Source of the DNA: an uncultured delta proteobacterium
GTDB taxonomy: Bacteria; Desulfobacterota; Desulfobacteria; Desulfobacterales; CAVQMW01
NCBI GenBank assembly: GCA_963713755.1
Contig: CAVQMW010000007.1
Span: 220,465-284,464, forward strand
DNA: 64,000 bases
Direction of reading: 5' to 3'
Shown here: positions 21,816-40,411 of the stretch, piece after piece
How the letters are laid out: each line of letters begins with the position of its first letter
Numbering within the stretch: the first letter of the stretch is position 1
Translations under genes and position numbers: made by a program
Notes under the pieces: model-generated
What the model was told of the DNA's origin: nothing
Database searches by the model: none
Seen by the model: only the letters and a program-made list of their open reading frames with translations

Positions 21816-21867
21816 CCGCGACAGGTAATGAAAATGATCGCCCCGGGGTGCGGCATCCCCACCCGTA

Positions 21868-21890
21868 GGGATGGGTTTCCAACCCGCCCC
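21868..21890. repeat. GC hairpin repeat (family D, degenerate)
   Basis: GGGATGGGTTTCCAACCCGCCCC. Confidence 0.6.
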
Positions 21891-21928
21891 TCCCGAGAGA
21901 CAAAATGCCCTGAGTTCACCAAGGATGG

Positions 21929-22984: not shown

Positions 22985-23067
22985 AACACCCTCCTCGATT
23001 TTGAGTAATGATCCGTCCCCGTGGTGATTTTTCACGGGAAAACACAAGTATCATCCATAGCCTGATC

Positions 23068-23946
23068 TCAGTCAGGCCTCATCTCATGGACCGCCAGCAT
23101 GTCTTCCAGCCCTTCGGTGATGGTGACCAGACCGCCGGCGGCAACCAGCGACCCAAGCACCACGCCGCAGTGAGTCAGGGCATCGCTTTTATCCACGGCC
23201 CGGGCTACGGCCCGGGCAAACGCCCCAGGGGATAGGGCACCCACTCCCACCGTAACCGGCAATTGAGGGATGTCGCTATCCGGGTCCAGCAGATGGGCCG
23301 GAACTTGTCGGATGGCGGGATCAGGCACCCAACAGGCATTGGCAATGGCCGTTGCAGCCGCATCGGCATAGTTGGCGCGATGCGCCACGGCGGTTACCGC
23401 CGAAGCGATCCCGCGGGTAAAACTTCGCCCCCCAAGCCCGCTGGTGGTCACCCCCCAGCTCGAACTCCGGTCATCGAGCTCAAGGATATGGGTAACCTCC
23501 GGCCGGCGGATATTAGTTCGCACGCCGACACTTACGGTTTCCCCGGGAGCCAGGCGTATCGCCAGATCTCCTCCATTGTCCACAATCACCCGGGTCATGC
23601 CTCGCTCGACCAACCAATCAGCCACCCCATCGGCCAATGTTCCAGCCACGGCGGCCATAGGGGTAAGATCCGCATCGCCCATCGCCTGAGCAGCGGCAAT
23701 CATGGCCTGGGCGAGATCATCCGTGCCGCTCCATTCAATTTTCAATACCGGCCGGCACAAATCAGTCCGCAGGCGGGCAATCCGCTCCAGATAGTCGACT
23801 CCCCGCAAGGCCGCTCGCCGGGCAACATCGGTGCGCGGACCCTTTTGGTCAAACGCTTTGATGGAAAGCCCCATGGGACCGCATACCACGCGCACTGTCT
23901 CGCGGTCAGGCAGAATAGTAATCGGCTGTTGCCAAGAGATAGACAA
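23068..23946 (-). CDS. UPF0280 / ApbE-like superfamily protein
   Basis: 292 aa. MAAVAGTLADGVADWL and VIVDNGGDLAI resemble the ApbE-fold core. Assigned from memory of the UPF0280 family. Confidence 0.6.
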   Translation of the reverse strand: MSISWQQPITILPDRETVRVVCGPMGLSIKAFDQKGPRTDVARRAALRGVDYLERIARLRTDLCRPVLKIEWSGTDDLAQAMIAAAQAMGDADLTPMAAVAGTLADGVADWLVERGMTRVIVDNGGDLAIRLAPGETVSVGVRTNIRRPEVTHILELDDRSSSWGVTTSGLGGRSFTRGIASAVTAVAHRANYADAAATAIANACWVPDPAIRQVPAHLLDPDSDIPQLPVTVGVGALSPGAFARAVARAVDKSDALTHCGVVLGSLVAAGGLVTITEGLEDMLAVHEMRPD

Positions 23947-23966
23947 ATGGAACCACCCGGTAGCAG

Positions 23967-24668
23967 TTAATCCAATTGCGCCACTACAGCGATGCCCTTG
24001 GACTTCATCTCTTCGAGGGCTTTCAGCGTCGTGTCCGGGGCGACGCCTTTGCAGAGGGATTCCACCACGGTGACTTTATAGCCCGCGTTCAGGGCATCGA
24101 TAGCGGTTGCCTTGACGCAGTAGTCCGTAGCAATACCGTAGACGATCACCTCGCTGATCCCATTGCGCTTTAGCACTGTATCCATTTCAGTCTTGGCCCC
24201 ACCGTCATCCTGAAACCCGGAATAGCTGTCATACCGCTTGTCCTTGCCTTTTTTGACCACGGCCTGAAACAGATTGTTATCAACTAAAATCCGCGCATTG
24301 GTCGTGCCCTGAACGCAATGGGGCGGCCATAACACCTGGGTGCGGTCCTCGATCTGGATTGTCTCAAAAGGTTTCTTTTCGCTGTGGTTGGAGAAAAAGG
24401 AAACATGCTCGGCCGGATGCCAATCCTGGGTGGCAAAGATCAGATGCCCATTGGTGTGCAGGTTTTCGGTGACCTTTTGGACCTTTTCGACAAAGGCTTG
24501 ATCCGACTCGGGGACCGCCAAAGAACCATTCTTAAAAGTGGTGAAATCCCCCTGCATGTCCACCACGATCACCCCGACCTTGGATGTTTCTCCGCCAAAA
24601 CTGGCGGATAGCATCCCCCAAACAATGATCATCGCTACCGCTGAACTCATCACCCATAACGCTTTCAT
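23967..24668 (-). CDS. pncA: Nicotinamidase/pyrazinamidase (isochorismatase fold) with an N-terminal signal peptide
   Basis: VVDMQGDF (catalytic Asp), TQDWHPAEHVSF (metal His), KKG (Lys) and GIATDYCV (catalytic Cys). The leader is MKALWVMSSAVAMIIVWGMLSA. I chose the start with the GGAGAG RBS. Confidence 0.85.
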   Translation of the reverse strand: MKALWVMSSAVAMIIVWGMLSASFGGETSKVGVIVVDMQGDFTTFKNGSLAVPESDQAFVEKVQKVTENLHTNGHLIFATQDWHPAEHVSFFSNHSEKKPFETIQIEDRTQVLWPPHCVQGTTNARILVDNNLFQAVVKKGKDKRYDSYSGFQDDGGAKTEMDTVLKRNGISEVIVYGIATDYCVKATAIDALNAGYKVTVVESLCKGVAPDTTLKALEEMKSKGIAVVAQLD

Positions 24669-24713
24669 GACCATCTCTCCTTTCACTCAATTAAGGGTTG
24701 TAGGAAATTCAAT

Positions 24714-26021
24714 TTAATTTCCGGAAAGCAACTTTGGCAGCCATGTCGCCAACTGAGGAAAGAGTATCAGCAGAATGATATTGATATAAATGGCCACCAG
24801 ATAGGGCAGTGCTCCCTTGACAATGGTTCCGATGGGATAATCGGGCACCACGCTGCGCAAAACAAACAGGCTGAGGCCGAAGGGCGGCGTAATCGTGCTT
24901 TGTTCAGCGGCCATCACATACACGACACCCCACCAGATGGGATCGAACCCCAGACCGCCAACAATGGGCATCACAAACGGAAAGGTGAGAAAGAGCATGG
25001 ACCAGGAGTCGAAAAACATCCCCATGAAGAAGTACATCACAAAGAATCCCAGGAGGATCCCGTATTTTCCGATAGTCAGACCGAGCACCTGCTCCTTGAT
25101 TAAGGGGATCATGCCCGCCGAGTTGAATACATGGGAAATCAGAGTGCTCATGGCCATGATGAAGAGGGAAAACGAGGTGATTTTCACCGTGTCCAAAAGG
25201 CTGTCGGAGAATAATTTATAGGTCAGTTTACGGTATCCAAGGGTCAGCACAATACTCAAAAAAGCCCCCAGCCCGCCGGCCTCCGTGGGGGTCATCAAGC
25301 CGCCAAAAATGGCGCCCAACACGCCGATAATCATCAAGGCGAAAGGCAAAGCTTCCCACAAGGCCCGTCGCCGGTCGGCCCAGCTGTACTTGACAGGCGG
25401 CGGGGCCAGAGCCGGGTTGAGCTTGACCATCACCGTAATCGTCACCAGAAAGAGTGCCGTAAGGGTCAGGCCCGGGATCAGGCCCGCGGCGAGCAGATCT
25501 ACGATGGAGACCCCCTGCCAGGCGCCGTAAAGAATGAGTAGAATACTTGGTGGTATCAGGGGCGCCAAAACCGTTCCGGAAGCAATGGAGCCCAACGAAA
25601 AACTGGGGTTGTATTTGCGTTGCTCCATAACTGGAAATGCGATCTTACCGAAAGTGGCCGTCGCAGCTATGGTGGATCCGGACATGGCTCCAAAAACCGC
25701 ATTCCCGCATATGACTGAAACCCCCAAACCGCCGGGCAGGTGCCCCACCCACTTGTCGATGGCATTGAAGAGTCGCTCGTTGACGCCGGTGTTCCCCAGA
25801 ATGGAACCCATCAAGATAAAGAGCGGCATGGCTGTCAAGGTAAAGGAGTTCAATGAACCCCAAAGGGTGTAAGCGATCTGGTTGATGGGTTGATCCACGT
25901 ACCAGATCAAACCCACCACCGCTACAACACCTACCGACCAGGCAATTTCCAGCCCCAGCAACAGGAGCACCAGGAGGCCTGCGATCAGAGCCACGGCAAA
26001 AAGAGCATCGGCGCCCATCAA
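24714..26021 (-). CDS. dctM: TRAP transporter large permease (DctM)
   Basis: 435 aa, polytopic, with WVGHLPGGLGVSVICGNAVFGAMSGS. It overlaps the dctQ stop by 4 nt. Confidence 0.92.
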   Translation of the reverse strand: MMGADALFAVALIAGLLVLLLLGLEIAWSVGVVAVVGLIWYVDQPINQIAYTLWGSLNSFTLTAMPLFILMGSILGNTGVNERLFNAIDKWVGHLPGGLGVSVICGNAVFGAMSGSTIAATATFGKIAFPVMEQRKYNPSFSLGSIASGTVLAPLIPPSILLILYGAWQGVSIVDLLAAGLIPGLTLTALFLVTITVMVKLNPALAPPPVKYSWADRRRALWEALPFALMIIGVLGAIFGGLMTPTEAGGLGAFLSIVLTLGYRKLTYKLFSDSLLDTVKITSFSLFIMAMSTLISHVFNSAGMIPLIKEQVLGLTIGKYGILLGFFVMYFFMGMFFDSWSMLFLTFPFVMPIVGGLGFDPIWWGVVYVMAAEQSTITPPFGLSLFVLRSVVPDYPIGTIVKGALPYLVAIYINIILLILFPQLATWLPKLLSGN

Positions 26022-26533
26022 CCCGCCTCCTCGTCGTTGCCCGCGGCTTTACCCAAGGCTTTGATCAGCTCGATGAAAAGCTGAAAAACAAGCAGTATCG
26101 CGCCGATAATGATGACCATCTGAGGATAGGCAATGGGGGTGCGCAGCCAGCTTCCGCTACGGGTGCCAAACATCAGCGAAAAGGCAACAAGTTGATAACC
26201 AGCGATCACCGTAAACACGGCCAGAGCCAAGGCCAGTGACAAGGTAAAAACCCGCAGCCAGCCCCGCATCGAAGGCGATAGCTTATTGATCAAGAACTCC
26301 ACCCGCACATGGCTGCGTTCCTGCCAGGCGAAGGCCAGACCCATGATGGTTACGGTTACTAGTAAATACCCACCGAACTCCTCGGCAATGGAAAGCGGGT
26401 TGCGCAGAACGTAACGGGAGGTTACATCCACCAAAACCAATACCATCATGGCAAAGATCAGCCAGCCCTGAAGGTGACCGCTGAAGAATGTGATCAACTT
26501 TTCGATAAAGCGAAGTATCCGACCCATGGGCAA
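26018..26533 (-). CDS. dctQ: TRAP transporter small permease (DctQ)
   Basis: 171 aa, 4 TM helices. Confidence 0.85.
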   Translation of the reverse strand: MPMGRILRFIEKLITFFSGHLQGWLIFAMMVLVLVDVTSRYVLRNPLSIAEEFGGYLLVTVTIMGLAFAWQERSHVRVEFLINKLSPSMRGWLRVFTLSLALALAVFTVIAGYQLVAFSLMFGTRSGSWLRTPIAYPQMVIIIGAILLVFQLFIELIKALGKAAGNDEEAG

Positions 26534-26560
26534 TCACCCCAATGTCACACCAATTTTTTA

Positions 26561-27625
26561 TCACTGGCAGCTAAATCCACGATATTGTTCTACAGAGGCC
26601 TTGATGGCATCAAGAAGCTCCTTGCCGTCGTCGCCGGTCTTCTTCAGCCACTCCGCTTCTACGACTTTGCAATTTTCCAGCGCCTTGGCCTGATCGGGAT
26701 CCGGCAGGTTCACCCGCTTGACACCGGAAAGATCCACGGTATCGACACTCATCACGTACTCGGCGGTGGTGGAGTAATTTACCATGCGCTGAAGATCCCG
26801 GCCCACATCCATAACCACCTGCTGAAGATCCTCGGGAAGTTCATCAAAAGATTTCAGATTGAGCAGAGTCACCGCCGTCCAGGTGGGAGAAAGGGGGGTT
26901 AATACAAAATATTCGGAGACTTTGGCCAAACCGATGGAGTAGCCATAACCCAGGCTGGTCAGCACACCGTCAATGGTGCCTGCCATCATGGCCGGCGCCA
27001 GTTCGGAACCGGCAATGGTTACTGGGCTGGCCCCTAAGGCCTTGATTCCCAGGGTAGGAAGATAACCGCCCACGCGGATCTTCATCCCCTGCAGATCATC
27101 CAAGGATTTGATCTCTTTTTTGCTCCATACACCGTTGGCCGGGTCCCACTGGGTAATGAACCAGAACTTGAGATTGAGCTTCTTTAGCGTGCGGTCGTAG
27201 ATCTCCATCACTTTTGGATCTTCGTAGATGGCCAACTCTTCGGCTAACCCCTGAACCGGGTCTTCATCCACAATCCCCGGAATTTCGCCCCAGTTCCATA
27301 GGGGATAGGTTCCCGACTCCCAGGGCATGGCCACATCCGCGCTGTCGGCCTTGCCGGTAGCCACGGCCTGCAGTAACTGATCCGTAGGAAACATGCGGGG
27401 AATGATTTTCAGCTTGATGCGTCCCCCCGACCGCTCGTCCAGCATGCGCTGCATTTCGCCACAGGGGCGATAGACTTGAGCGGCTCGAAATTTAGGCCCC
27501 CAGATGTCATTCCAGGCAAATTTCAATTCGTAGACTTTGTCCGCGGCGACGGTTTGCACAGGAACTGCCATCAGCACTAAAGCCGCGAGCACCGCCAACC
27601 CCAACCGATTGCGTTTTCTTGTCAT
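26561..27625 (-). CDS. dctP: TRAP transporter substrate-binding protein (DctP family)
   Basis: 354 aa with a signal peptide (LAVLAALVLMAVPVQTVAA). KIRVGG and GVLTSLGYG are DctP-like. Confidence 0.88.
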   Translation of the reverse strand: MTRKRNRLGLAVLAALVLMAVPVQTVAADKVYELKFAWNDIWGPKFRAAQVYRPCGEMQRMLDERSGGRIKLKIIPRMFPTDQLLQAVATGKADSADVAMPWESGTYPLWNWGEIPGIVDEDPVQGLAEELAIYEDPKVMEIYDRTLKKLNLKFWFITQWDPANGVWSKKEIKSLDDLQGMKIRVGGYLPTLGIKALGASPVTIAGSELAPAMMAGTIDGVLTSLGYGYSIGLAKVSEYFVLTPLSPTWTAVTLLNLKSFDELPEDLQQVVMDVGRDLQRMVNYSTTAEYVMSVDTVDLSGVKRVNLPDPDQAKALENCKVVEAEWLKKTGDDGKELLDAIKASVEQYRGFSCQ

Positions 27626-27678
27626 TGTTTTCTCCTTTAAATCTTAGAAACTGTATTTACGAACGTCTGAACTTAGCC

Positions 27679-29124
27679 TTAGCCACTGCTGAGTTTTGAA
27701 TCCGCCGCCGCCACCAATTGATCCAATTCCGCGCACAGTTCCGCGGGAGCAGCCGCACTGTTCTCTTTTGCCATGAGGACACGGTAATCCTCCATCACCC
27801 TGTCCATGAGGTTTTTCCGCCCGCTTTTTTCATAATCATCACGGGTCGGCCGTGTGAAGTTGTGAGGTACAAATGCATCGCGACAATGTTCCAATGTGTG
27901 ATCCGCCAGCATGAAATGCATCCCAGGCTCGACAGAGGTGAGAGGTTGCCAGCCCATTTGATCGTCATCCAGACTGAAGGGCATCACCAGCCGCCGGGCC
28001 ATGGCCAGGACCTCATTATCGACAATGAGCTGCAAAGGGCTGACCACGGTGGCAACTTCCAGCTGACCGGCACCGCCGAGGATGTCTAGTCCTGAAGCGG
28101 CCATCCAGGTGGTCAGCATGGCCCGCTCACTCATGGATTGCATATCGGGAATGGGTGAATCGGTCCCGCTGCCGTAATTATGCGTCGGCAGCCCAAACTC
28201 CTGTTTCAGAAACTGGTCTGCCAAGGAGGCTCCCCGCATGGCCTCCACACTGGCCTGCAGACTACGACCGGTGGCCATGTCCGTGGAGAAGATAATGGGG
28301 CAGGCCACCACGGGTGCACCGGGCTGAACGGCCTGGGCCATGGCGACCAGGGCCAGAATTTCGGCGACTGCAAGCAGCACAGTTCCCAGCACGGTGGCGG
28401 GGGCTGTCCCGCCGGCCCCGGGCAGAGAACAGGCGTGGATGGGAATACCAGCTCGGGCCGCTTGAAGGATAACCTCCATGTCCATCTGTTTGAAGGCCCG
28501 GGGCGTCAGGGAGCAGGCAATCATGGAGATCAGCGGATTATCCGACAGCGCCTTTCGGCCTCCGGCCGCGGCAGCCGCCAGATCGATCAGCGCAGCTACG
28601 CTCTCGGCGCAATAGGGCTGGACCCAAAGATGCTTGTCGGTATGCTTAAACAGCGTAGCCAGCGCGTGGATATCCGCCGTAGCCACGGGGGCATCGTCGG
28701 GAAACAGATAGGGCATGAAGCTGATTTCATCCAGATGGTTGACCAGCCGGGCCCAATCCGCCAACCGAGCCAAGGTCACTTTTTCCAATTCAGCAGTCTC
28801 AGGATCGATCCAGCCATGCCCCCCGGTACAGGTGCGGGCGTAGAAGGTGCCATCCGGTCGCGGCAGAGGCAGGGCCCGCTCCGGATTCCGAGCACCCAAT
28901 GTAAAAGTGCGCGGTGCCCGTGCCAGCAATTCTTCGAGGGCTTTACGGGGAAAGCATACCCGCCCGCTGTTGCTGTCCAATTTCAGGCCGGACCGAACCA
29001 ACGTCTCCATAATTTCAGGGTGGTTATCCAGTTTGACGCCATGGTCGGCAAGCAGAGTGAAAACCCTGGTTTTTAATGTGGCCCGTTGACTCTCATCAAG
29101 ATAGGAAAATTTAGCCATACTCAT
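27679..29124 (-). CDS. MttB-superfamily (trimethylamine methyltransferase-like) protein, non-pyrrolysine type
   Basis: 481 aa, an uninterrupted ORF with no internal TAG. It has the family-typical length and a TIM-barrel-like pattern (..YARTCTGGHG.., ..MIACSLTP.., ..GIPIHACSLPGAGGTAP.., ..LDILGGAGQLE..). Confidence 0.8.
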   Translation of the reverse strand: MSMAKFSYLDESQRATLKTRVFTLLADHGVKLDNHPEIMETLVRSGLKLDSNSGRVCFPRKALEELLARAPRTFTLGARNPERALPLPRPDGTFYARTCTGGHGWIDPETAELEKVTLARLADWARLVNHLDEISFMPYLFPDDAPVATADIHALATLFKHTDKHLWVQPYCAESVAALIDLAAAAAGGRKALSDNPLISMIACSLTPRAFKQMDMEVILQAARAGIPIHACSLPGAGGTAPATVLGTVLLAVAEILALVAMAQAVQPGAPVVACPIIFSTDMATGRSLQASVEAMRGASLADQFLKQEFGLPTHNYGSGTDSPIPDMQSMSERAMLTTWMAASGLDILGGAGQLEVATVVSPLQLIVDNEVLAMARRLVMPFSLDDDQMGWQPLTSVEPGMHFMLADHTLEHCRDAFVPHNFTRPTRDDYEKSGRKNLMDRVMEDYRVLMAKENSAAAPAELCAELDQLVAAADSKLSSG

Positions 29125-29214
29125 GGAGAACCTCTTCTTCCCGGATTATTTAGACGTCTGAGCGTTCATGGGTCTTAAAGATCGAGCGCATTTCATATCG
29201 CTGGTTTAGATGAT

Positions 29215-30741: not shown

Positions 30742-30841
30742 AGGTTCGGATTCTCCACGCTAAAGTTTGCTGCTATTAAAATCTGACCAGTCCATAGTTC
30801 TTCTAACCCACTGAAATTATTAGGTTCGATTGGATAGCCTC

Positions 30842-30921
30842 GTCATTCCTGCGAAGGCGGGAATCCAGATAGATTCCAATACATTGGAATCTCTGGATGC
30901 CGGATCAAGTCCGGCATGACG
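30842..30921. repeat. MITE-like inverted-repeat element (family B, copy 3)
   Basis: GTCATTCCTGCGAAGGCGGGAATCCAG ... CTGGATGCCGGATCAAGTCCGGCATGAC. It sits between two genes of the catabolic block. Confidence 0.85.
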
Positions 30922-30986
30922 GAAAACTTTGGGCTCTCAAGTTAGAATTAATTCATCAGAAAAATTGGTCGTGACGCTGCTATCCT

Positions 30987-32147: not shown

Positions 32148-32179
32148 GCGTTCCTCCTATATGACGACCGAATATAAAT

Positions 32180-32207
32180 GGGTAGAGGCAGGCTTGAAAC
32201 CTACCCC
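32180..32207. repeat. GC hairpin repeat (family D, degenerate)
   Basis: GGGTAGAGGCAGGCTTGAAACCTACCCC, in the 69-nt gap between the Mo subunit and the amidohydrolase. Confidence 0.6.
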
Positions 32208-32216
32208 TGCAGCAGC

Positions 32217-34502
32217 TTAGTCTGCTCTTGCCGGCCCAAAATGCCCGCCCTTGATACTCGCCTCGAGGACCCGTTCCAGATTGGCCGGCAAAGTATAGAT
32301 CCGCTCTCCCAGAGCGTCGGCAATGGCGTTGAGTATGGCCGGAGCCGTTGGAATCAGGGCCGGTTCGCCGACCCCTTTCGCGCCGAAGGGTCCGCTGGGT
32401 TCGGGGGATTCGATGATGATGGGCACGATTTCGGGCATATCCGCAATGGTGGGGATAGGGTAGTCCTTCATGGAAATCGTGCTCCCGGGGTGAAATTCTT
32501 CCATCAAACCAAAGCCGATGCCCATGGCCACCCCGCCGCAAATCTGCCCGATCACATTCCCGGGGTGGATGGCCCGGCCCACATCATGCGCGGCCACCAC
32601 CTTCTCCACCTTGACTTCACCGGTGAGTACATCGACGGCGACCCCAACCAGCTGGCAGGCAAATGCGTAGGTCGCGTAGGGCACGCCCTGGCCGGTTTCA
32701 AGGTCCAGGGGAACCGTGTCGGGGTCGAAATAACCGGGCCACTCCAGCCCCCCGCCTTTGGCCTGGATGCGCCGGGCCAGTTGGGAAAAGGAAACCCGTT
32801 TCTCGGGGTCCCTGTTTAGAACGACTTCTCCGTTGTCAAACACCAAGCTCCGCTTAGGCGCTCGCAAACGGTTGACTGCTTCAGTGAGCAACACATCTGA
32901 GAGTTTGGTACAGGCATCGTGTACGGCATTGCCGGAGATGTAAGTCTGGCGGCTGGCCGAGGTGGCGCCGGCATTGGTAGTCAACAGGGTATCCGCCGCC
33001 ACTAGCCGAATTTCATGGGCGGCGAGTCCCAAAACCTCACCGGCGATCTGGGTGAGCACCGTGGAGGAGCCCTGGCCGATGTCCGCACAGCCGCTGTAGA
33101 GGGTAACCCGGCCTTCAAGGTCCATCTCCACCCGGGCCGTGGAGGGGTTCTGCACGCCGGTGTTGCCGATGCCGTACCACATGGCAGCGATGCCCACCCC
33201 CCGCTTCACATAAGGCCCTGCATCTTTGACCTTTTCCCGAGCCAGGGCCCAATGGGGTTGGACCGCCCGCAGGCAATCCATGAATCCCACGCTGTCGGTG
33301 AGCTCCTGGCCCGTGGCGGTGACAGCGCCGACGTGAAGGGCATTGCGCAGGCGAATTTCCAGGGGATCGATATCGAGCGCCCGGGCGTGGAGATCGAGCT
33401 GGCTTTCATGAGCCACGGCGGCCTGGGGTGTGCCAAAGCCGCGCATGGCACCGCAATAGGGATTGTTGGTGTAGACACAGCGGCTTTCAATATCCACGTG
33501 GGGAATTTGATAAGGCCCCGTGATATGCACCGCCGCCCGGGAGGTTACCGCCAGGCCGTAAGAGGCGTAGGCGCCGGTGTCGCAAATGATTCTCGCCCGC
33601 AGCGCCCGCAAGCGCCCCTGAGCGTCGGTTCCGGTTTTAAGTTCAATCGTGAGGGGGTGCCGTTTGGCCGTGGCCAGATAGGCCTCTTCCCGGCTGTAAA
33701 CGTAGCGCACGGGACGCTTGAGATGGTAAAGGGCCAGCCCGATAAATCCCTGGACATTCATGTCCAGCTTGGAACCGAACCCGCCCCCGGTGGCGGCCTG
33801 AATGACGCGCACCCGATCATCGGCCAGACCCAGGAGGGTGACCACCTCTTTGTGGTCGTAATGGGGATTCTGGGTAGAGGCGTAAATCACCAGGGTGCCG
33901 TCGTCATCCACGAACCCCAGACCGGCATCGGGTTCCAGGTAGTTGTGCTCCACCATGCCGGTGCGGTAGGTTTTCTCTACCACGCTGGCGCATTGCGCCC
34001 ACTGACCCTCGGGATCACCGTGTTTGATTCGGCGCGTCACCAGGCAGTTGCCCTTAGGGTGAAGCGACGGGGCCTGGGGTTTTAGCGCTTCTTCGGGGTC
34101 GAACACCGCCGGCAGGGGCTCGTAGATAACTTCAATCGCTTTGAGGGCTGCTGCGGCGGCGGCTTCATTTTCGGCCGCCACCAGAGCCAGCGGTTCGCCT
34201 TTGCAGCGCACCTTGCCCGCAGCCAGCAAGGGTTGGTCCTTGTTGATAATCCCCAAGGCATTTTTGCCGGGAATATCATGGGCCGTGAAAACGGCGACCA
34301 CCCCGGGCAGCGCCGCGGCTGCCTGGGTGTCGATTTCGACCAGGGATGCGTGGGGGTGGGAACTGCGTAAGGCTTTCAGCACCAGGGGCGCATCGGCGCT
34401 CAGGTCCGCGCAGAAGATTGGCGCGCCCTTGAGCTTTTCCTGAGCGCCGAATCGCGGAATGCTGCGGCCGATGGATTTGAAACGAGATTCCATAGGATTC
34501 AT
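32217..34502 (-). CDS. Molybdopterin-binding large subunit of a xanthine-dehydrogenase-family hydroxylase (nicotinate dehydrogenase candidate)
   Basis: 761 aa. GGGFGSK, CGAMRGFG and FGAKGVGEP are typical of the XDH/aldehyde oxidase family. It is a single chain rather than split. Confidence 0.9.
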   Translation of the reverse strand: MNPMESRFKSIGRSIPRFGAQEKLKGAPIFCADLSADAPLVLKALRSSHPHASLVEIDTQAAAALPGVVAVFTAHDIPGKNALGIINKDQPLLAAGKVRCKGEPLALVAAENEAAAAAALKAIEVIYEPLPAVFDPEEALKPQAPSLHPKGNCLVTRRIKHGDPEGQWAQCASVVEKTYRTGMVEHNYLEPDAGLGFVDDDGTLVIYASTQNPHYDHKEVVTLLGLADDRVRVIQAATGGGFGSKLDMNVQGFIGLALYHLKRPVRYVYSREEAYLATAKRHPLTIELKTGTDAQGRLRALRARIICDTGAYASYGLAVTSRAAVHITGPYQIPHVDIESRCVYTNNPYCGAMRGFGTPQAAVAHESQLDLHARALDIDPLEIRLRNALHVGAVTATGQELTDSVGFMDCLRAVQPHWALAREKVKDAGPYVKRGVGIAAMWYGIGNTGVQNPSTARVEMDLEGRVTLYSGCADIGQGSSTVLTQIAGEVLGLAAHEIRLVAADTLLTTNAGATSASRQTYISGNAVHDACTKLSDVLLTEAVNRLRAPKRSLVFDNGEVVLNRDPEKRVSFSQLARRIQAKGGGLEWPGYFDPDTVPLDLETGQGVPYATYAFACQLVGVAVDVLTGEVKVEKVVAAHDVGRAIHPGNVIGQICGGVAMGIGFGLMEEFHPGSTISMKDYPIPTIADMPEIVPIIIESPEPSGPFGAKGVGEPALIPTAPAILNAIADALGERIYTLPANLERVLEASIKGGHFGPARAD

Positions 34503-34540
34503 GAGGGTTTCAGTTTTATTCGTGCCCGGCCGAAAAGCCT

Positions 34541-34653
34541 CTTCTCCCTCCCCCTTGAAGGGGGAGGGCCGGGGTGGGGGTGAATGATATCAGGCCTTTA
34601 TATCCCCCTCCCCCAACCCCTCCCGCCAGGGGAGGGGAGTTTTCGGTCAGGCA
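34541..34653. repeat. GC-rich palindromic repeat (family C, copy 2)
   Basis: CTTCTCCCTCCCCCTTGAAGGGGGAGGGCCGGGGTGGGGGTGAATGATATCA...CGCCAGGGGAGGGGAGTTTTCGGTC. It matches about 21450-21558 and, inverted, 59153-59205. Confidence 0.85.
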
Positions 34654-34699
34654 CTAATTCGAATCGGACCTGACATGGGTTGCCCTTGAAGGTCCGGGT

Positions 34700-35551
34700 T
34701 TAAGTCAGAGGCGCCATGAGGCGCATGAACAGTCCCTGGATGGCCGGTTCTTTGTACACCGTGGAGTGGCGGCGGCCGGTGATGGCGATCATGGTCTCCG
34801 CCATGATCCGGCCCGCCTCCCAAATCCGTTCCGCCGTGGGCCGCTGATCGAACAGAAACGCTTCCACTGCGGTCATACGATGGGGGGTCGGCGTACAGGA
34901 ACCTAAAGCCACGCGAATAAAATCTATCTTACCGTTTTCCTTCCGGCGGACCATGGCCGCCAGATTGAGCCGGGCAATCGCCAGCGCCCGTCGACGGCCG
35001 ATTTTTTGAAAATCCGCAAAGTCCGCTTGGGCCGGTTTGAGAATGAAGCGGGTGATCACTTCTCCAGGCGGCAGGGCACAGGCATAGGGCCCCGAGGCCA
35101 CGGAAGTAATGGGGATGCGGCGCAATCCTCCTTTGCCGGCGAGCTCCACATCAGCCTCATGGATAACCAGGGGCGGCAGAGTGTCCCCGCAAGGAGAACA
35201 GTGCGCCACGTTACCCCCAATCGTGGCCACATTTCGAATCTGGCGGCTGGCAAAGGTTTGGGCGCATTTGTTGAGGGATGGCGCGTGTTGCGCCAGAAGC
35301 TCGGAATTTTCGATCTCGCTGAGGGTGACCGCAGCGCCCACGGAAAGTTCTTCCCCGTTGAGTTCTAAAACCCTGAGTTCGGGGAGGCGGCTCACATCCA
35401 AAAGAACATCGGGAGTCCGTTCTCCGGACCGGAGATCCACCACCACATCGGTCCCACCGGCCAGAATTTGGGTGCTGCGGCCCTTTTCAGCCAGAACATC
35501 CAACGCCGCATTCAGAGAGTCAGGGCGAATGTAATCGAATTCAGCCGGCAT
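34700..35551 (-). CDS. FAD-binding subunit of the Mo-hydroxylase (CoxM/XdhB-like)
   Basis: 283 aa with the FAD_binding_5 pattern ILAGGTDVVVDL and ATIGGNVAH. Confidence 0.9.
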   Translation of the reverse strand: MPAEFDYIRPDSLNAALDVLAEKGRSTQILAGGTDVVVDLRSGERTPDVLLDVSRLPELRVLELNGEELSVGAAVTLSEIENSELLAQHAPSLNKCAQTFASRQIRNVATIGGNVAHCSPCGDTLPPLVIHEADVELAGKGGLRRIPITSVASGPYACALPPGEVITRFILKPAQADFADFQKIGRRRALAIARLNLAAMVRRKENGKIDFIRVALGSCTPTPHRMTAVEAFLFDQRPTAERIWEAGRIMAETMIAITGRRHSTVYKEPAIQGLFMRLMAPLT

Positions 35552-36035
35552 CGGTTGTTCCCTCCACCTTTTGGGCAGCAGCTTCCACGGATTCGAAGAT
35601 CTGCTGGTAGCCGGTACAGCGACACAAATTACCGGCCAACGCAGAACTTACCGCAGCCCGGTCCGGATAAGGATTTTCCCGTAAGAGGGCATCGGTGCTC
35701 ATCAACAAACCCGGTGTGCAAAACCCGCATTGCACGCCGTGCTGCTCTAAGAACGCCTCTTGGATCGGATGCAGCCCTTCCTCCGGAGCCAGCCCCTCCA
35801 CGGTGGTCACCTGGCGCCCATCCAGCTGAGCCGCCAACATCAGGCAGGAATTAACCGCCCGTCCGTCGACCTGGATAGTGCAGGCGCCGCATTCGCCGAT
35901 CCCACAGCCCTCCTTGGTGCCTTTGAGGCCCAATTCTTCTCTGAGCAGCTGCAACGCGGTCAGCGCGGCGGGAATTTCAAGGGATAGGGCTTTACCGTTG
36001 AGTATGATCTGGATGTTTACGCGAGGAGGATTCAT
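35541..36035 (-). CDS. [2Fe-2S]-binding small subunit of the Mo-hydroxylase (CoxS/XdhC-like)
   Basis: GCGIGECGACTV-type (CGIGECGACTIQVDG) and CGFCTPG motifs. The start is uncertain; I chose MNPPRV, but the ORF extends to 36089. Confidence 0.9.
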   Translation of the reverse strand: MNPPRVNIQIILNGKALSLEIPAALTALQLLREELGLKGTKEGCGIGECGACTIQVDGRAVNSCLMLAAQLDGRQVTTVEGLAPEEGLHPIQEAFLEQHGVQCGFCTPGLLMSTDALLRENPYPDRAAVSSALAGNLCRCTGYQQIFESVEAAAQKVEGTTDAG

Positions 36036-36096
36036 GGGCCGCTGCCTTCTGCCGATATGCATGTCACCGTTGAACGGTGTGGATTTCAAGTCCGGC

Positions 36097-36124
36097 GGGG
36101 AGGGGCGGGTTTAGCCCCCGCTCC
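36097..36124. repeat. GC hairpin repeat (family D, degenerate)
   Basis: GGGGAGGGGCGGGTTTAGCCCCCGCTCC, in the gap upstream of the 2Fe-2S subunit. Confidence 0.55.
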
Positions 36125-36176
36125 GAAAGGCTACCCTCTACCGGAGAGATGGGGTAAGGCAAAGAAGAGGCTCGGC

Positions 36177-36770
36177 CTATCGCAGCCCATCCTCACCTTT
36201 GGCATCTTCTTTCCTGAGCCCCCCGATTCGGGGCAACGGTCGTCCGGAATCGGTAACGGCTACAATCAGAACCAATTCATCGGCGCGGGGAGCATCGGGG
36301 ATCCGCACCTCCATGGCATCGAAGTGGGAACGCACAAAGGCGGCATCCTTATACCCCAGGGGGACATCCAGGGCAGCACCGGGGAAAGCCAGTTTTTTGG
36401 CTGAGGGGATGAGGGCCTTACCCCCGCCGACATTTCCCCGCATGGGCTTTCCCAGAGCCGGATGCATGATGGCCGCGCAGTGTTCCAACTCGCCATTTTC
36501 TCCCACCAGGGCGCCCTTGCCGTAACTCTCCACCTCCTCGGGAGCGATTCCCAGGGCGGCCACCGCTTTTTGGGTGAGGATTGCTCCCAATTCTTCGCTG
36601 ATCTCAATCAGCGAAGTAAGATCTTCCTGGTAGCTACCGGCGAATGGATTGGCAAACACCGCGGCAACCGCGGCTTTACGGGTGGCGGGCGATACATCCC
36701 GGGCGCCATCCCGGTGGGTTTCTTCCACAATGGTATAAAATTTTCGAATATGAAGTTGGGACTTGCTCAT
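36177..36770 (-). CDS. 'Amino acid synthesis' family protein (PF06684/DUF1185-like), function unknown
   Basis: About 197 aa. FANPFAG, GKGALVGENGELEHCAAIMH and GGGKALIPSAKK match my memory of this family. I chose the ATG with the GGAGAG RBS. Confidence 0.6.
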   Translation of the reverse strand: MSKSQLHIRKFYTIVEETHRDGARDVSPATRKAAVAAVFANPFAGSYQEDLTSLIEISEELGAILTQKAVAALGIAPEEVESYGKGALVGENGELEHCAAIMHPALGKPMRGNVGGGKALIPSAKKLAFPGAALDVPLGYKDAAFVRSHFDAMEVRIPDAPRADELVLIVAVTDSGRPLPRIGGLRKEDAKGEDGLR

Positions 36771-36803
36771 GGCGCTCTCCATCTCTGGTTCGGTCTTGCG
36801 GGC

Positions 36804-38291
36804 TTAGGCCCAGCGCTCGGTAACCGTCTTTTGATCCAAAAACAGGCGCATAGAATCGATGCGGGATTTGGCCAGCCCAAAGGCCGACTCATTCTTGGAG
36901 CCCAGGGGAAAGAAGGCAAAGGGCTGGGGCACGGGAACGTTGACTCCCACATTGCCCACATCGGCCTGCTTGATAAAGTTTCGGGCCACATGGCCGTCAC
37001 GGGTGAAGATGCAGCCCGAATGGCCGTAGTTGTCTTTTTCATTCATCCAGGCCAGGGCCTGGTCAAGGTCGTCGGCCCGCAGCAGATTGGCTACCGGTCC
37101 GAAGGACTCCTGGCGGGCAATGTGCATATCAGGATGGACTCCTTCGAAGATTGTCGCCCCCAAGAAAAATCCGTTTCTATAAGGCTCCGCCAATTTCGGC
37201 TGGCGGCCGTCCAAGATCATCCGTGCACCTTCATTGAGTCCCATCTCAATGAATTTGAGCACCTTGTTCTTACCTGCTTCGGTGACCAAGGGACCCATTT
37301 CCGTGGCTTCATCCAGTCCGTACCCAAGGGGCATGGCCGCCGAGGCGGCAACGAATTTCTCCTTGAACTCGTCATACGCATCACCGATCACCACGATGTT
37401 GTCGGCTCCCAGACAGCGCTGCCCGGCCATGCCGTAACAGCCCCGCAGCAAGCCGGCCACAGCCTTGTTCAGATCGGCATCGGGCATCAGCACCACATGG
37501 TTTTTGCCGTTACCGTTGACCGAGGCCTCCTTACCCAAGCGCCCGGCCTGGGCGAAGAGTTCCAGCCCCACGCTTGAGGAGCCGATAAACCCTACCCCTT
37601 TGATTGCGGGGTGCTCCAGAATCATCTGATTAATCTTGCGGCCACCGTAGATCAGATTGTTTAAGCCCGGCGGAAATCCTTTGACTTTGCTGACAGTCTC
37701 AAAAATGGCCTGGGCACAAATGGGATCAGCGGAGCTGGGGCTGACGATCACCGGACAACCGCTGGCCAGGGCGTAGGGCACATAGGAGGACCAGGCATGC
37801 ATGGGAATGTTGTTGGGCGTGATGATCAGAAAGACTCCCCGAGGCTCCCAGTAAAGGGTTTGATCCAAACCCATGGCCAGGTCGGGCACATATTCACCCT
37901 TGGTCATCAGCATCAGCGCCGAACAGGCCGATTCGATATTCTCAATACAGCGCCGCAGCGTCCCCCGGGCTTCACCGATGGTACGGCCATGATCCTGAAC
38001 CAGGATTCGGCAGAGCCGGTCATAGTCCAGCTCAAACTGTGCGCGCAAATCAAAGAGGCAGCGCGCCTTGTCCCGCAGAGAAACCTGCTTCCAGGCCGCA
38101 AGTGCCCCCTGGGCGGCTTCGATGGCCTCGGTAACCTCGCCCTCGCTGCTGACGGCAAAGGCGCCGATCTCTTTTCCGGTGGCCGGGTTCACTACTGCCT
38201 GGCTCAGAGGTTCAGAGGCGCTGCGCCACCTACCGTTGATGTACATCTTTAATTTGCCGTAATGACCCCGGACTTCTTCCAAAACTGCCAT
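36804..38291 (-). CDS. CoA-acylating (methyl)malonate-semialdehyde dehydrogenase-family aldehyde dehydrogenase
   Basis: 495 aa. The catalytic Cys lies in AGQRCLG. The family-specific C-terminus is PVPQPFAFFPLGSKNESAFG (compare MmsA/IolA PAPMAFFPFSGWKNSFYG). The Rossmann motif is GFIGSSSVG. Confidence 0.85.
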   Translation of the reverse strand: MAVLEEVRGHYGKLKMYINGRWRSASEPLSQAVVNPATGKEIGAFAVSSEGEVTEAIEAAQGALAAWKQVSLRDKARCLFDLRAQFELDYDRLCRILVQDHGRTIGEARGTLRRCIENIESACSALMLMTKGEYVPDLAMGLDQTLYWEPRGVFLIITPNNIPMHAWSSYVPYALASGCPVIVSPSSADPICAQAIFETVSKVKGFPPGLNNLIYGGRKINQMILEHPAIKGVGFIGSSSVGLELFAQAGRLGKEASVNGNGKNHVVLMPDADLNKAVAGLLRGCYGMAGQRCLGADNIVVIGDAYDEFKEKFVAASAAMPLGYGLDEATEMGPLVTEAGKNKVLKFIEMGLNEGARMILDGRQPKLAEPYRNGFFLGATIFEGVHPDMHIARQESFGPVANLLRADDLDQALAWMNEKDNYGHSGCIFTRDGHVARNFIKQADVGNVGVNVPVPQPFAFFPLGSKNESAFGLAKSRIDSMRLFLDQKTVTERWA

Positions 38292-38374
38292 GCTATCTTC
38301 TCCTTGGTTTACTTAAACGCATATTACCGTAAAAAATCTTGAGGCTATGTTGTGTGTTCAAGTGCCTCCGTTTC

Positions 38375-39085
38375 CTAGTCAATGGAGATTGCCATTTCCG
38401 CAGTGGCTTGGGAATCTCCTTGTCTCAACGCTTCATGGGTCGGGGCAATGAGTTTGGCCGCCACCTCCAACGCTTCCAATACATGGGTTTTCATCAATCG
38501 GCACGCCTTGGCCCGCTCCCGGCGGCGAATGGCGCTTAAGATATCCTGGTGGAAACGGATGGATTCCCTGAGATGCCGGGTATCCTGGAGGGTGCGGTAG
38601 CTGAAGCGCTGGATCTGCAAGTGCAATGTGGAGGCGAATTGCGTCAGGCGTTCGTTGGCGGCCACCTCTAAAATCAGATGGTGATAGGCGTGGTGCAGCT
38701 TCTGATAACGCAGCAAATCCGGCGGCTGCCGGCTCACGCAGGACTCCATCTCATCCACCAGGTGCCCCAGGTGGGTAATATGTTGGTCATGGAACCGGTC
38801 CAGAGCTATATCGACGGCCATGGCATACAGATGGGCCTTGAGGGTGTAGACCTCCCAAACATCCTTAAGGGTCATTTCGGTGACAAAGACGCCCCTGCGG
38901 GGCCGGCGAACCACCAGACCTTCGGCTTCCAGGCCTTTGAAGGCCTCCCGGACAGGCGGCCGGCTGATATTGAGACCGCTGGCGATCTCCTCTTCCTTGA
39001 TCTGCTGGCCGGGCGCCAGATCCCCGCGGGCAATGCGTTTCATGATATGGTCTCGGGCCAGATCGGATAAGGATTGAACTTCCAT
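38375..39085 (-). CDS. GntR-family regulator with an FCD (FadR C-terminal) ligand domain
   Basis: 236 aa. The wHTH is EEEIASGLNISRPPVREAFKGLEAEGLV, followed by a helical FCD domain with His residues. Confidence 0.9.
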   Translation of the reverse strand: MEVQSLSDLARDHIMKRIARGDLAPGQQIKEEEIASGLNISRPPVREAFKGLEAEGLVVRRPRRGVFVTEMTLKDVWEVYTLKAHLYAMAVDIALDRFHDQHITHLGHLVDEMESCVSRQPPDLLRYQKLHHAYHHLILEVAANERLTQFASTLHLQIQRFSYRTLQDTRHLRESIRFHQDILSAIRRRERAKACRLMKTHVLEALEVAAKLIAPTHEALRQGDSQATAEMAISID

Positions 39086-39131
39086 GATCCTCCAAGGTGA
39101 TGGATGGGGGTCGCGATGGGGTTCAATATTG

Positions 39132-39161
39132 TTTATTGTCTTTTGTAGACAATTCTGTCAA
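39132..39161 (-). promoter_or_regulatory. Candidate sigma70 promoter with an embedded GntR-type palindrome
   Basis: On the minus strand: TTGACA-18 nt-AATAAA. The spacer carries the inverted repeat ATTGTCT-tttgt-AGACAAT (39135-39153), which fits the GT..AC operator style of GntR/FadR regulators. It lies about 50 nt upstream of the GntR ATG. Confidence 0.4.
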
Positions 39162-39163
39162 CT

Positions 39164-39213
39164 AAAAAAATCCTCCATACCATCATGCATTCCAACACAT
39201 GGATGATGTATGG
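39164..39213 (-). terminator. Rho-independent terminator after the OYE gene
   Basis: On the minus strand: CCATACATCATcCATG-loop-CATGATGGTATGG followed by AGGATTTTTTTAG. Confidence 0.65.
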
Positions 39214-39289
39214 CAAAATCACCCATTCCAGGATGATCCGCAACGGGGATTTTATCTATCACTTTAAATTGCGAGACAGCAGTTGTGGT

Positions 39290-40411
39290 CTAGGATTGGA
39301 GTGATTTCTCGTGTTCCTTCTTTTCCACCACACAATAGATGCCGCCCTCTTCCAGGGCGGGCTTGAAGCAGCTGTTGCAGGAGATGCACTTAGCGGGGGG
39401 GCAATCCCCCCGCTGCCAGCGGTTGGGCAGTTCCGGTTCGCGGATCAGGGGGCGGGAGAGGGCCACATAATCCAGGCCCTCGGCATCAACGGCCCGGGCG
39501 GCCACCTCGTATGAGCGAAATCCCCCCACGCAGATCAGCGGGCAGCCCACCTGGGCTTTAACCGCCTTGGCCAACTCCAAATTGTAGGCTTCCCGCTCCG
39601 GGGAGTTAATGCGGGTTCGGGCTGGGGTTTTGGAACCCGAGGCCGGGGTGCCTGCCGAGACTTCAATGGCGTCGATTCCGGCCCGATCCAATTTTCTAGC
39701 AGCAAACAGGGCGTCCTCGAGGGTCAGCCCGCCATCGAGATTGTCACTGGCGTTGAGCTTGATGAACAGCGGATAGTCATGCCCCAGGGTTTGACGCACC
39801 TCTTCATACACCTCCATGAGGAACCGGCAGCGGTTTTCAAGGGATCCACCGTATTGGTCACCGCGCCGGTTGGTCAGGGGGGAGAGGAATTGATTGATCA
39901 GGTAGCCATGGGCGCCGTGAAGCTGAACCCCGTCAAAGCCCCACTGCTTGGCGCGTCGGGCGCCCTCGGCAAATGCGGCCACGATCCGGGCGATCTCCTC
40001 CCGGGTCAGCTCCGCGGGCACCACGGGATACTGGACTGTTTCCACGGCGGAGGGCGCCAGCGGCAGACCATCGATGAACTGGGCCTGGGCCTGCCCGCCG
40101 GCATGGACCAGCTGGATAGCGATTTTTCCGCCGGATTGATGGACCGCGGCGGTGAGCGCCCGAAACGATTCCTCAAAGGCATCGCTGTAAATTCCCATCT
40201 TGCCTTTCTGCTGTTTACCTTCCGGGCTCACGTAGGTGTATCCCGATATGATCAGACCGACCCCGCCCGCGGCCAGCTCCCCATAGCAGGCCGCCAGTTT
40301 CGCCGTCGGCCGGCCGTCGCTGTCACACATGCCTTCCCAGGTCGCCGAGCGCACCAGCCGGTTGGCAAGCTGCATCCCGTTTAACCGCGTTACCTCAAAT
40401 AATTCCGCCAT
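39290..40411 (-). CDS. Old-Yellow-Enzyme-family FMN oxidoreductase with a C-terminal 4-Cys motif (short form)
   Basis: SATWEG, HGAHGYLINQFLSP and the TIM-barrel pattern are present. The tail reads CISCNSC...GGIYC. I chose the start at MAELFE, which has the RBS GAGGAG. Confidence 0.85.
   Translation of the reverse strand: MAELFEVTRLNGMQLANRLVRSATWEGMCDSDGRPTAKLAACYGELAAGGVGLIISGYTYVSPEGKQQKGKMGIYSDAFEESFRALTAAVHQSGGKIAIQLVHAGGQAQAQFIDGLPLAPSAVETVQYPVVPAELTREEIARIVAAFAEGARRAKQWGFDGVQLHGAHGYLINQFLSPLTNRRGDQYGGSLENRCRFLMEVYEEVRQTLGHDYPLFIKLNASDNLDGGLTLEDALFAARKLDRAGIDAIEVSAGTPASGSKTPARTRINSPEREAYNLELAKAVKAQVGCPLICVGGFRSYEVAARAVDAEGLDYVALSRPLIREPELPNRWQRGDCPPAKCISCNSCFKPALEEGGIYCVVEKKEHEKSLQS

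Follow-up and report, generated by a model that had tools for sequence, protein, structure and literature searches.

A candidate gene cluster for nicotinate and nicotinamide catabolism in an uncultured Desulfobacterales bacterium, with a proposed glutaryl-CoA exit and an associated MttB-family module

We examined a 64,000-nucleotide stretch of DNA from an uncultured delta proteobacterium of the Desulfobacterales (GenBank assembly GCA_963713755.1, contig CAVQMW010000007.1, positions 220,465 to 284,464), which is called the window throughout. The genes at 19287-39085, perhaps extending to 40447, are taken as a whole best explained as a set of operons for degrading nicotinate and nicotinamide in an anaerobic host, a reading in which we place good confidence. 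By orthology to characterised enzymes, a nicotinamidase (PncA) would convert nicotinamide to nicotinate and ammonia, a molybdenum hydroxylase (NdhS-NdhF-NdhLM) would convert nicotinate to 6-hydroxynicotinate, and the iron-sulfur flavoprotein 6-hydroxynicotinate reductase (Hnr) would use ferredoxin to form 1,4,5,6-tetrahydro-6-oxonicotinate, the ring of which would be opened by an enamidase (Ena) to yield 2-formylglutarate and ammonia. With this core the window adds another case to a pathway already known, and what differs is the proposed exit through glutaryl-coenzyme A (glutaryl-CoA), the tripartite ATP-independent periplasmic (TRAP) transporters, and a module built around an MttB-family methyltransferase. 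The cluster, which the genomes of Desulfocicer niacini and about 60 other Desulfobacterota species share, represents a concrete candidate genetic basis for nicotinate oxidation by sulfate reducers; no published description of the genes for this process in sulfate reducers was found.

The published nicotinate fermentation cluster of Eubacterium barkeri, for which PMC3511419 and PMC10331938 cite Alhapel et al. 2006, served as the reference. Species-representative genomes were scanned with an alignment of two enamidases, by which 114 loci were confirmed and 80 were kept (L001-L080). These Ena-anchored loci comprised 20 of a Firmicutes type and 60 that came almost entirely from Desulfobacterota, denoted here as Desulfobacterota-type. 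The top locus, L001, belongs to E. barkeri VPI 5359, and because its ena is 100% identical to PDB 2VUN, it could be equated with the published cluster. A reading made beforehand from the sequence only had proposed that three enzymes of the window correspond to nicotinate dehydrogenase, Hnr and enamidase, which was borne out by full-length reciprocal matches of 28-59% identity. When the search was reversed, each of the E. barkeri proteins Ena, Hnr, NdhS, NdhF, NdhL and NdhM matched its counterpart alone in the window. Absent or merely partial similarity to Hnr and Ena, which that reading had named as grounds for abandoning the proposal, was therefore not what the searches returned. The 386-amino-acid amidohydrolase encoded by ena (30987-32147, minus strand, as are all cluster genes given below) aligned with E. 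barkeri enamidase 2VUN over residues 1-385 without a gap (E = 2.5e-145, 59% identity). Its residues H67, H69, H193, H220 and D276, which we take to be the metal ligands from general knowledge of the amidohydrolase superfamily, are identical in both proteins.

The hydroxylase is encoded at 32217-36089, where Pfam located separate 2x[2Fe-2S], flavin adenine dinucleotide (FAD) and molybdopterin modules side by side. The iron-sulfur subunit gene, ndhS (35541-36089; PF00111 and PF01799), encodes a protein sharing 44% identity with E. barkeri NdhS in a BLASTP comparison against the open reading frames (ORFs) of L001. Since this alignment begins at residue 23 of the ORF, the start at 36035 given in the sequence-only reading is plausible, and the true start probably lies near that position. 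The FAD subunit gene, ndhF (34700-35551; PF00941 and PF03450), encodes 283 residues that align full-length with E. barkeri NdhF at 28% identity (BLASTP). The molybdenum subunit gene, ndhLM (32217-34502; Ald_Xan_dh_C, MoCoBD_1 and MoCoBD_2), encodes one 761-residue chain in which NdhL and NdhM are fused. Its residues 8-414 match NdhL (3HRD_A, 393 bits) and its residues 433-741 match NdhM (3HRD_B, 260 bits), these two being the top solved relatives, and the identities to the E. barkeri ORFs are 45% and 46%, respectively (BLASTP). Other solved enzymes that were matched are HcrA (380 bits over the whole length), aldehyde oxidoreductase (321), xanthine dehydrogenase (266) and CoxL (215), so that no firm clustering with 4-hydroxybenzoyl-CoA reductase, CO dehydrogenase or purine hydroxylases, the outcome held to be damaging in the earlier proposal, emerged from this placement, which is an order by bit score alone and not a phylogenetic tree. 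4-Hydroxybenzoyl-CoA reductase (PDB 1RM6) resembles the window enzyme in having three subunits and a single-chain alpha subunit of similar length, but it scores well under NdhL and NdhM combined. The fusion itself had been pointed out beforehand and is correct, yet it is frequent among the orthologous loci, Firmicutes included, so that separate NdhL and NdhM chains characterise a lineage and are not needed for function.

The nicotinate dehydrogenase of E. barkeri carries labile selenium at its molybdenum site, and yqeB and yqeC are maturation genes for it. YqeB is encoded within or adjoining the nicotinate cluster of D. niacini (L090, 11872-12717), and YqeB, YqeC and MocA, which serve the maturation of a selenium-dependent molybdenum cofactor, are encoded within or adjoining a related cluster (L092, 6558-8852). 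This linkage suggests that the nicotinate dehydrogenases of those clusters are selenium-dependent, as in E. barkeri. A second three-subunit molybdenum enzyme was also observed, which adjoins the nicotinate cluster in D. niacini (L090, 2484-6362) and MttB homologues elsewhere (L083, 1316-5153; L086, 16908-20740). Its alpha subunit has 784-793 residues and its FAD subunit 328-336; it is about 27-29% identical to the window enzyme, and the best solved match of the L086 alpha subunit is 4-hydroxybenzoyl-CoA reductase (1RM6). Over all separate molybdenum enzymes near MttB homologues and in D. niacini, the FAD subunits measure 325-336 residues, as against 283 in the window.

The 508-residue protein encoded by hnr (29215-30741), which has an N-terminal 2x[4Fe-4S] ferredoxin domain, is 47.6% identical over 498 residues to the E. 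barkeri hnr ORF (BLASTP), this ORF having been called from its position in the published cluster and from the source names of its homologues. Homologues number at least several thousand, and for some of them NCBI or JGI gives the name 6-hydroxynicotinate reductase. Two ferredoxin motifs and a third group of four cysteines had been described in the protein; they are present as C8/11/14/18, C37/40/43/47 and C65/68/72/82, and all of these cysteines are at least 95% conserved among 59 orthologues. The Hnr of E. barkeri is reported with two [4Fe-4S] clusters, one [2Fe-2S] cluster and a covalent flavin, and it is from this cofactor content that the cluster types of the three cysteine groups were assigned. 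The motif MRxGCGSA (residues 257-264, window 29950-29973) lies outside the iron-sulfur domain and is invariant in the 59 orthologues. It is a candidate site for the covalent flavin. Its conserved GCGSA stretch departs from the canonical ApbE flavinylation motif, and T265 varies among the orthologues; we claim no attachment site.

An ApbE-like protein (UPF0280/PF27030) is encoded at 23068-23946. It scored weakly with PF02424 (22.3 bits, cut-off 25.6) and reached 189 bits with NF003322, and an identical protein carries a precomputed match to PF27030 (AbpE_bact); a sequence search returned no solved relative. The protein is 38% identical to the ORF directly 3' of hnr in E. barkeri, and of the 54 loci with both genes, 44 have them side by side. 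Because members of the ApbE family are flavin transferases, because the gene adjoins hnr, and because a covalent flavin is reported for Hnr, we propose that the ApbE-like protein attaches this flavin during the maturation of Hnr. The gene at 36177-36782 encodes a PF06684 protein (DUF1185/AA_synth, 241 bits), which has a chorismate-mutase-like fold, matches PDB 2QTP (E = 6.8e-75), and is 55% identical to the ORF directly 3' of ena in E. barkeri. It was detected in 20/20 Firmicutes-type and 45/60 Desulfobacterota-type loci, often adjoining ena, and since E. barkeri and Desulfobacterota alike keep it there, we assign it to the upper pathway as a conserved accessory. The PF06684 protein may assist the enamidase step, possibly by handling the enamine or aldehyde product. 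Two orphan families, PF06684/DUF1185 and UPF0280/ApbE-like, would through these assignments each acquire a particular step in a defined pathway.

Nicotinamidase is represented by pncA (23967-24686), the product of which exceeded the cut-off of the equivalog model NF008623 (180.5 against 174 bits) and has orthologues in 10/60 Desulfobacterota-type nicotinate loci. A GntR/FCD transcriptional regulator (38375-39085; PF00392 and PF07729), which has orthologues in 18/60 of the same loci and in L092, would control the cluster genes. The flavoprotein gene at the upper end (39290-40447; PF00724), of the old yellow enzyme (OYE) family, is doubtful as a pathway member. We rejected it as unsupported since none of the 80 Ena-anchored loci contains an orthologue, and a 644-residue OYE-domain protein in L092 is just 36% identical to it. 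Compared with E. barkeri, the window shares the three upper enzymes with full-length homology, the ApbE-like gene that follows hnr there, and the PF06684 gene that follows ena. It differs by the fusion of NdhL and NdhM and by the absence of the B12-dependent lower pathway, and it holds in addition a gene for an aldehyde dehydrogenase resembling methylmalonate-semialdehyde dehydrogenase (MSDH), TRAP transporters, pncA, the GntR regulator and the MttB module.

The gene order FeS-FAD-Mo-Ena-Hnr-ApbE-like-PF06684 recurs across the 20 Firmicutes-type and 60 Desulfobacterota-type species genomes, the latter including Desulfobacterales, Desulfarculaceae, Desulfomonilaceae, Syntrophales and Desulfatiglandaceae. 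A survey of gene neighbourhoods in Desulfobacterales, as had been suggested for the window, accordingly recovered the same core, which about 60 species genomes of Desulfobacterota contain. When protein sequences were searched with the aldehyde dehydrogenase, a 72%-identical protein was retrieved from Desulfocicer niacini, the current name of Desulfococcus niacini, a sulfate reducer isolated on nicotinic acid. The species was described in 1983, and its oxidation of nicotinate in culture dates from then, according to the reference listed in PMC12700296. Its contig (L090) carries, in order, the aldehyde dehydrogenase, YqeB, a corrinoid protein, a pterin methyltransferase, the PF06684 protein, FeS, FAD and Mo subunits, Ena and Hnr, with identities to the window of 72% for the aldehyde dehydrogenase, 72% for the PF06684 protein, 65% for FeS, 57% for FAD, 66% for Mo and 70% for Ena. 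The isolate-linked locus L092 has an aldehyde dehydrogenase identical to that of Desulfospira joergensenii, and its cluster adjoins yqeB, yqeC and mocA. With about 60 Desulfobacterota species and D. niacini carrying it, the nicotinate cluster is native to Desulfobacterota and tied to a cultured nicotinate degrader, and the suggestion that the upper pathway had been transplanted into a sulfate-reducer-like genome is refuted. The description of the window as a case of the pathway outside the clostridia holds insofar as the pathway is present; it is not a new occurrence, as the trio was already reported in Proteobacteria (PMC3511419). Azorhizobium caulinodans and Bradyrhizobiaceae use an aerobic "hybrid" pathway through tetrahydro-oxonicotinate and glutarate (PMC3511419), and the clusters of these aerobes include an ATP-binding cassette (ABC) transporter, whereas the window belongs to an anaerobic Desulfobacterales host and encodes TRAP systems. 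A branched-chain-type ABC transporter was also seen in the Desulfobacterales locus L027 (13955-20425), where the nicotinate cluster is immediately followed by it and by a gene for nicotinate phosphoribosyltransferase.

The fate of 2-formylglutarate appears to differ from that in E. barkeri. The lower pathway of E. barkeri comprises 2-(hydroxymethyl)glutarate dehydrogenase and dehydratase, 2-methyleneglutarate mutase, methylitaconate isomerase, and dimethylmalate dehydratase and lyase. The corresponding ORFs gave zero tblastn matches in the 64-kb window, and they were found in 0/60 Desulfobacterota-type loci (1/60 for a 301-residue ORF) versus 4-18 of 19 Firmicutes-type loci. The MSDH-like aldehyde dehydrogenase (36804-38291) occurs in 39/60 Desulfobacterota-type versus 1/20 Firmicutes-type loci. 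A PDB search listed CoA-acylating MSDHs as all of its ten best solved relatives, and like such enzymes (5TJR, 4ZZ7 and 1T90), it aligns over the full length, retains the Arg-Cys catalytic motif (GQRC), and lacks Glu at the general-base position of hydrolytic aldehyde dehydrogenases. Unlike them, it scores below the curated subfamily cut-off and is embedded in nicotinate clusters, for which reason we propose a substrate with a carboxyethyl group where theirs has methyl. As 2-formylglutarate is a 2-substituted malonate semialdehyde, the enzyme probably decarboxylates it oxidatively to glutaryl-CoA and CO2. A route encoded elsewhere in the genome would then lead from glutaryl-CoA to crotonyl-CoA and acetyl-CoA, and glutaryl-CoA is metabolised by complete-oxidising sulfate reducers, which fits such an exit. 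The exit would thus resemble the glutaryl-unit route of Azorhizobium, not the B12-dependent fermentation of E. barkeri, and with the aldehyde dehydrogenase the conversion of 2-formylglutarate into a glutaryl unit, so far undefined, gains a candidate enzyme open to assay.

Two TRAP sets, each of P, Q and M components, are located at 24714-27625 and 19287-23047. Their solute-binding proteins, DctP1 and DctP2, share approximately 25-28% identity, which marks them as distinct systems. The second set consists of dctP2 (21929-23047; PF03480), dctQ2 for the small permease (20616-21152; PF04290) and dctM2 for the large permease (19287-20593; DctM Pfam domain and TIGR00786). DctP2 orthologues of 50-72% identity lie in or beside the nicotinate clusters of 27/60 Desulfobacterota-type loci, one Firmicutes locus, L087 and L092; dctM2 orthologues are found in 23/60 Desulfobacterota-type loci, and dctQ2 stands beside dctP2 and dctM2 in related loci. 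Judged by these neighbourhoods, the system at 19287-23047 is the transporter conserved with nicotinate clusters; DctP2 is a probable receptor for nicotinate (or 6-hydroxynicotinate), and DctP2/DctQ2/DctM2 would import the substrate. PDB sequence searches with DctP1 and DctP2 returned distant matches only, which were uninformative about the ligands. A complete TRAP importer had been noted in the window beforehand, and it is indeed there (24714-27625, dctM1-dctQ1-dctP1; Pfam DctM, DctQ and DctP); it belongs, however, to the inserted MttB module, and the conserved transporter of the cluster is the one at 19287-23047. Orthologues of DctP1, DctQ1 and DctM1 (74-82% identity) adjoin MttB homologues in L061, L085 and L087, and the same MttB-TRAP layout is seen in L088 and L089, where it is known from Pfam annotation.

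Several observations weigh against the pathway as reconstructed above, the most general being that all assigned functions derive from homology and gene context. The aldehyde dehydrogenase reaches 350 bits with TIGR01722, for which the cut-off is 448, so that its substrate and its use of CoA can only be inferred. A glutaryl-CoA dehydrogenase gene was found neither in the window nor in most related loci, an acyl-CoA dehydrogenase adjoining a related cluster at a single locus (L065), and yqeB and yqeC were not found in the 64-kb window. The AlphaFold2 model of Hnr, built with 47 homologues, was poor (mean predicted local distance difference test 62, predicted template modelling score 0.41) and lent no support to a mechanism; a Foldseek search with it, in which the catalytic part amounts to about 420 residues, gave zero PDB matches at E <= 0.001. 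Finally, dctM2 contains a single frameshift near 20285 (approximately 20282-20290), next to a run of six G, across which the DctM orthologue of L034 aligns in two different frames (residues 1-100 and 103-433; tblastn). This reflects either a broken importer, that is, a pseudogene, or an indel error of the assembly.

These weaknesses leave room for other readings of the same genes. The upper pathway could be as described with an exit by free acids, in which 2-formylglutarate loses CO2 spontaneously or assisted by the PF06684 protein, the aldehyde dehydrogenase oxidises glutarate semialdehyde to glutarate, and activation to glutaryl-CoA takes place elsewhere. A. caulinodans does convert the tetrahydro-oxonicotinate intermediate into central metabolites via glutarate (PMC3511419), the score under the MSDH cut-off would agree with such a role, and the PF06684 protein has a fold like that of chorismate mutase and is frequently positioned beside ena. 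We nevertheless regard this exit as unlikely, because the best solved relatives of the aldehyde dehydrogenase are all CoA-acylating and decarboxylating, its Arg-Cys motif is kept and the general-base Glu needed for hydrolytic release is missing, PF06684 is also retained in E. barkeri-type clusters, where 2-formylglutarate undergoes no decarboxylation, and the cluster contains no CoA-transferase gene. A complete fermentation of the E. barkeri type, which yields propionate and pyruvate by way of 2-(hydroxymethyl)glutarate, the B12-dependent 2-methyleneglutarate mutase and dimethylmalate, would explain why the three upper enzymes and both accessory genes are common to the two clusters, but the lack of any homologue of the downstream ORFs in the window and their distribution among the two locus types, given above, make it improbable in the extreme. 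That the cluster degrades another N-heterocycle or aromatic acid (another pyridine carboxylate, a purine or 4-hydroxybenzoyl-CoA), its likeness to nicotinate enzymes being one of family membership only, is likewise very improbable. The substrate specificity of molybdenum hydroxylases is unreadable from sequence alone, and the best NCBIfam models for the molybdenum subunit are those of xanthine dehydrogenase PucD (566 bits) and the 4-hydroxybenzoyl-CoA reductase alpha subunit (541 bits); these scores all fall below the cut-offs, though, and the two models rank first because NCBIfam has no nicotinate-specific model. NdhL and NdhM together surpass every other solved molybdenum enzyme; Ena (59%) and Hnr (48%) serve as markers of high specificity and occur with the E. 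barkeri gene order and accessory genes; pncA (10/60 loci) and a nicotinate phosphoribosyltransferase gene (L027) are linked to the cluster; and D. niacini, which was grown on nicotinate, carries it.

The MttB module is the part of the cluster most worth an experiment. The MttB-family methyltransferase gene (27679-29124) encodes a protein that matches PF06253 over its full length (213 bits, residues 4-472), and its ORF is uninterrupted, indicating that it has no amber codon and therefore no pyrrolysine. The protein belongs to a compact clade, the homologues of which (60-67% identity) adjoin corrinoid proteins, pterin-binding methyltransferases and nicotinate clusters. In L087, genes for Mo, Ena, Hnr, ApbE, the second TRAP type, MttB, a corrinoid protein, the first TRAP type, RidA and a pterin methyltransferase stand together. 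L088 combines a RACo-type activase, a pterin methyltransferase, MttB, a corrinoid protein and the first TRAP type, and L085 and L089 have MttB, this TRAP and RidA. L083 and L086 have MttB and a corrinoid protein beside a different molybdenum enzyme, which in L086 best matches 4-hydroxybenzoyl-CoA reductase among solved structures, and in L084 MttB lies beside a CoA ligase gene and a further molybdenum enzyme that is 36% identical to the window Mo subunit. Among the Ena-anchored loci, L027, L039, L040, L061 and L079 contain a member of the clade in or beside the nicotinate cluster, accompanied in L061 by a corrinoid protein; in L005, of the Firmicutes, an MttB of 37% identity and two corrinoid proteins neighbour ena and hnr. 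The nicotinate-linked genes form three sublineages of the one clade and occupy four insertion points (L027/L039/L040; L061/L079; the window; L087).

Compared with characterised systems of the MttB superfamily (MtgB, PDB 2QNE, 9YCE), the window protein is of the same fold family and without pyrrolysine. It differs from MtgB in that its match to this glycine betaine methyltransferase is distant (142 bits, E = 2.5e-40) and in its linkage with a TRAP importer for carboxylates and with clusters for nicotinate or a molybdenum hydroxylase. On the simplest reading of these arrangements, the module would take up an N-methylated carboxylate and remove the methyl group, giving a product that feeds the nicotinate pathway; trigonelline (N-methylnicotinate) fits best as this carboxylate. 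The methyltransferase with its own TRAP would then deliver nicotinate, and the methyl group would pass through a corrinoid protein encoded elsewhere. We advance, tentatively and as a possibility that falls short of being probable, that the protein founds a clade of corrinoid-dependent methyltransferases that demethylate trigonelline imported by a dedicated TRAP system. If true, this would be the first anaerobic route for trigonelline, with the methyl group going to tetrahydrofolate and the ring to the nicotinate pathway, and it would widen the range of the MttB superfamily beyond aliphatic substrates to pyridinium ones. The module would in that case point to a new substrate class for a large, mostly uncharacterised methyltransferase superfamily and connect sulfate reduction in sediments with the turnover of an osmolyte that is abundant in plants and algae. 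Trigonelline has been named as a possible unknown substrate for methylotrophy (PMC10805028), and no description of a trigonelline:corrinoid methyltransferase was found in the searchable literature.

The same genes could instead serve to demethylate betaines, for example glycine betaine or some other osmolyte, be unrelated to nicotinate, and have been inserted by chance. This view is a serious candidate, if again somewhat less than probable. The tblastn search of the 64-kb window found neither a corrinoid protein nor a pterin methyltransferase, whereas orthologous loci carry the expected corrinoid protein, pterin-binding methyltransferase and RACo-type activase. Homologues as close as those in nicotinate clusters lie beside a molybdenum enzyme resembling 4-hydroxybenzoyl-CoA reductase, or alone; the module stands by itself in L085, L088 and L089 and beside a different molybdenum enzyme in L083, L084 and L086, so that the substrate of the clade is not pinned to the nicotinate pathway. 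To our knowledge, all characterised MttB-family enzymes without pyrrolysine act on aliphatic betaines. A chance insertion is harder to reconcile with four separate insertion points in or beside nicotinate clusters by three sublineages, with the distant MttB and corrinoid proteins in the Firmicutes ena/hnr locus, with the corrinoid protein and pterin methyltransferase inside the D. niacini cluster, and with the merely distant match to the solved glycine betaine enzyme. The missing corrinoid and pterin components do accompany MttB homologues of 57-67% identity in L061, L083, L086, L087 and L088.

As to the extent of the cluster, the ORF listing shows 15 minus-strand ORFs in succession over 23068-40447 with spacings of approximately 20-245 bp, in agreement with the co-directional run with short gaps described in the sequence-only reading. 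The molybdenum hydroxylase subunits, the amidohydrolase, the 508-residue protein, the nicotinamidase and the GntR/FCD regulator listed there were all recovered by Pfam and NCBIfam at the same positions, and the MttB-family, PF06684, MSDH-like, ApbE-like and OYE genes were missing from that list. The second TRAP system is also part of the cluster, which moves the left boundary to 19287 and brings the total to approximately 21 kb; the flanking genes are of housekeeping type (Pfam, NCBIfam). The term "island" has no compositional support, since the G+C content of the region (0.53-0.61) is similar to that of its flanks, and the idea of a compositional island was dropped. Within the window, promoter-like sites occurred at chance level only, terminator-like sites were modestly above chance (29 against 20.6 ± 4.7 expected), and an Rfam search gave zero matches.

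Several repeats were observed along the window. The gap between dctQ2 and dctP2, unusually long at 780 bp, contains all copies of a 42-nt repeat (21607-21816 and 21294-21359), which forms a tandem array of 4.8 copies with 89% matching and has two further copies about 300 bp away; each unit carries the palindrome CCCCCTTT..AAAGGGGG. An element of about 120 nt is present in two copies of 87-89% identity, one in the same gap (21441-21558) and the other in the 197-bp gap between the Mo and FAD subunit genes (34533-34653). It contains a G+C-rich hairpin, CCCTCCCCC...GGGGGAGGG, and looks like a small dispersed intergenic repeat. At 51953-52132, GC-rich repeats of GCC/GCCGCC type with periods of 12, 24 and 63 nt fall within a minus-strand ORF (51915-52958) that has no Pfam match. 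A long in-frame repeat of 15 nt (5 residues) at 62461-62989, rich in Glu, Lys and Ala on the plus strand and located in a region of AT skew 0.31, lies inside the overlapping ORFs 62285-63706 (plus strand) and 62249-63622 (minus strand), the latter being without a Pfam match.

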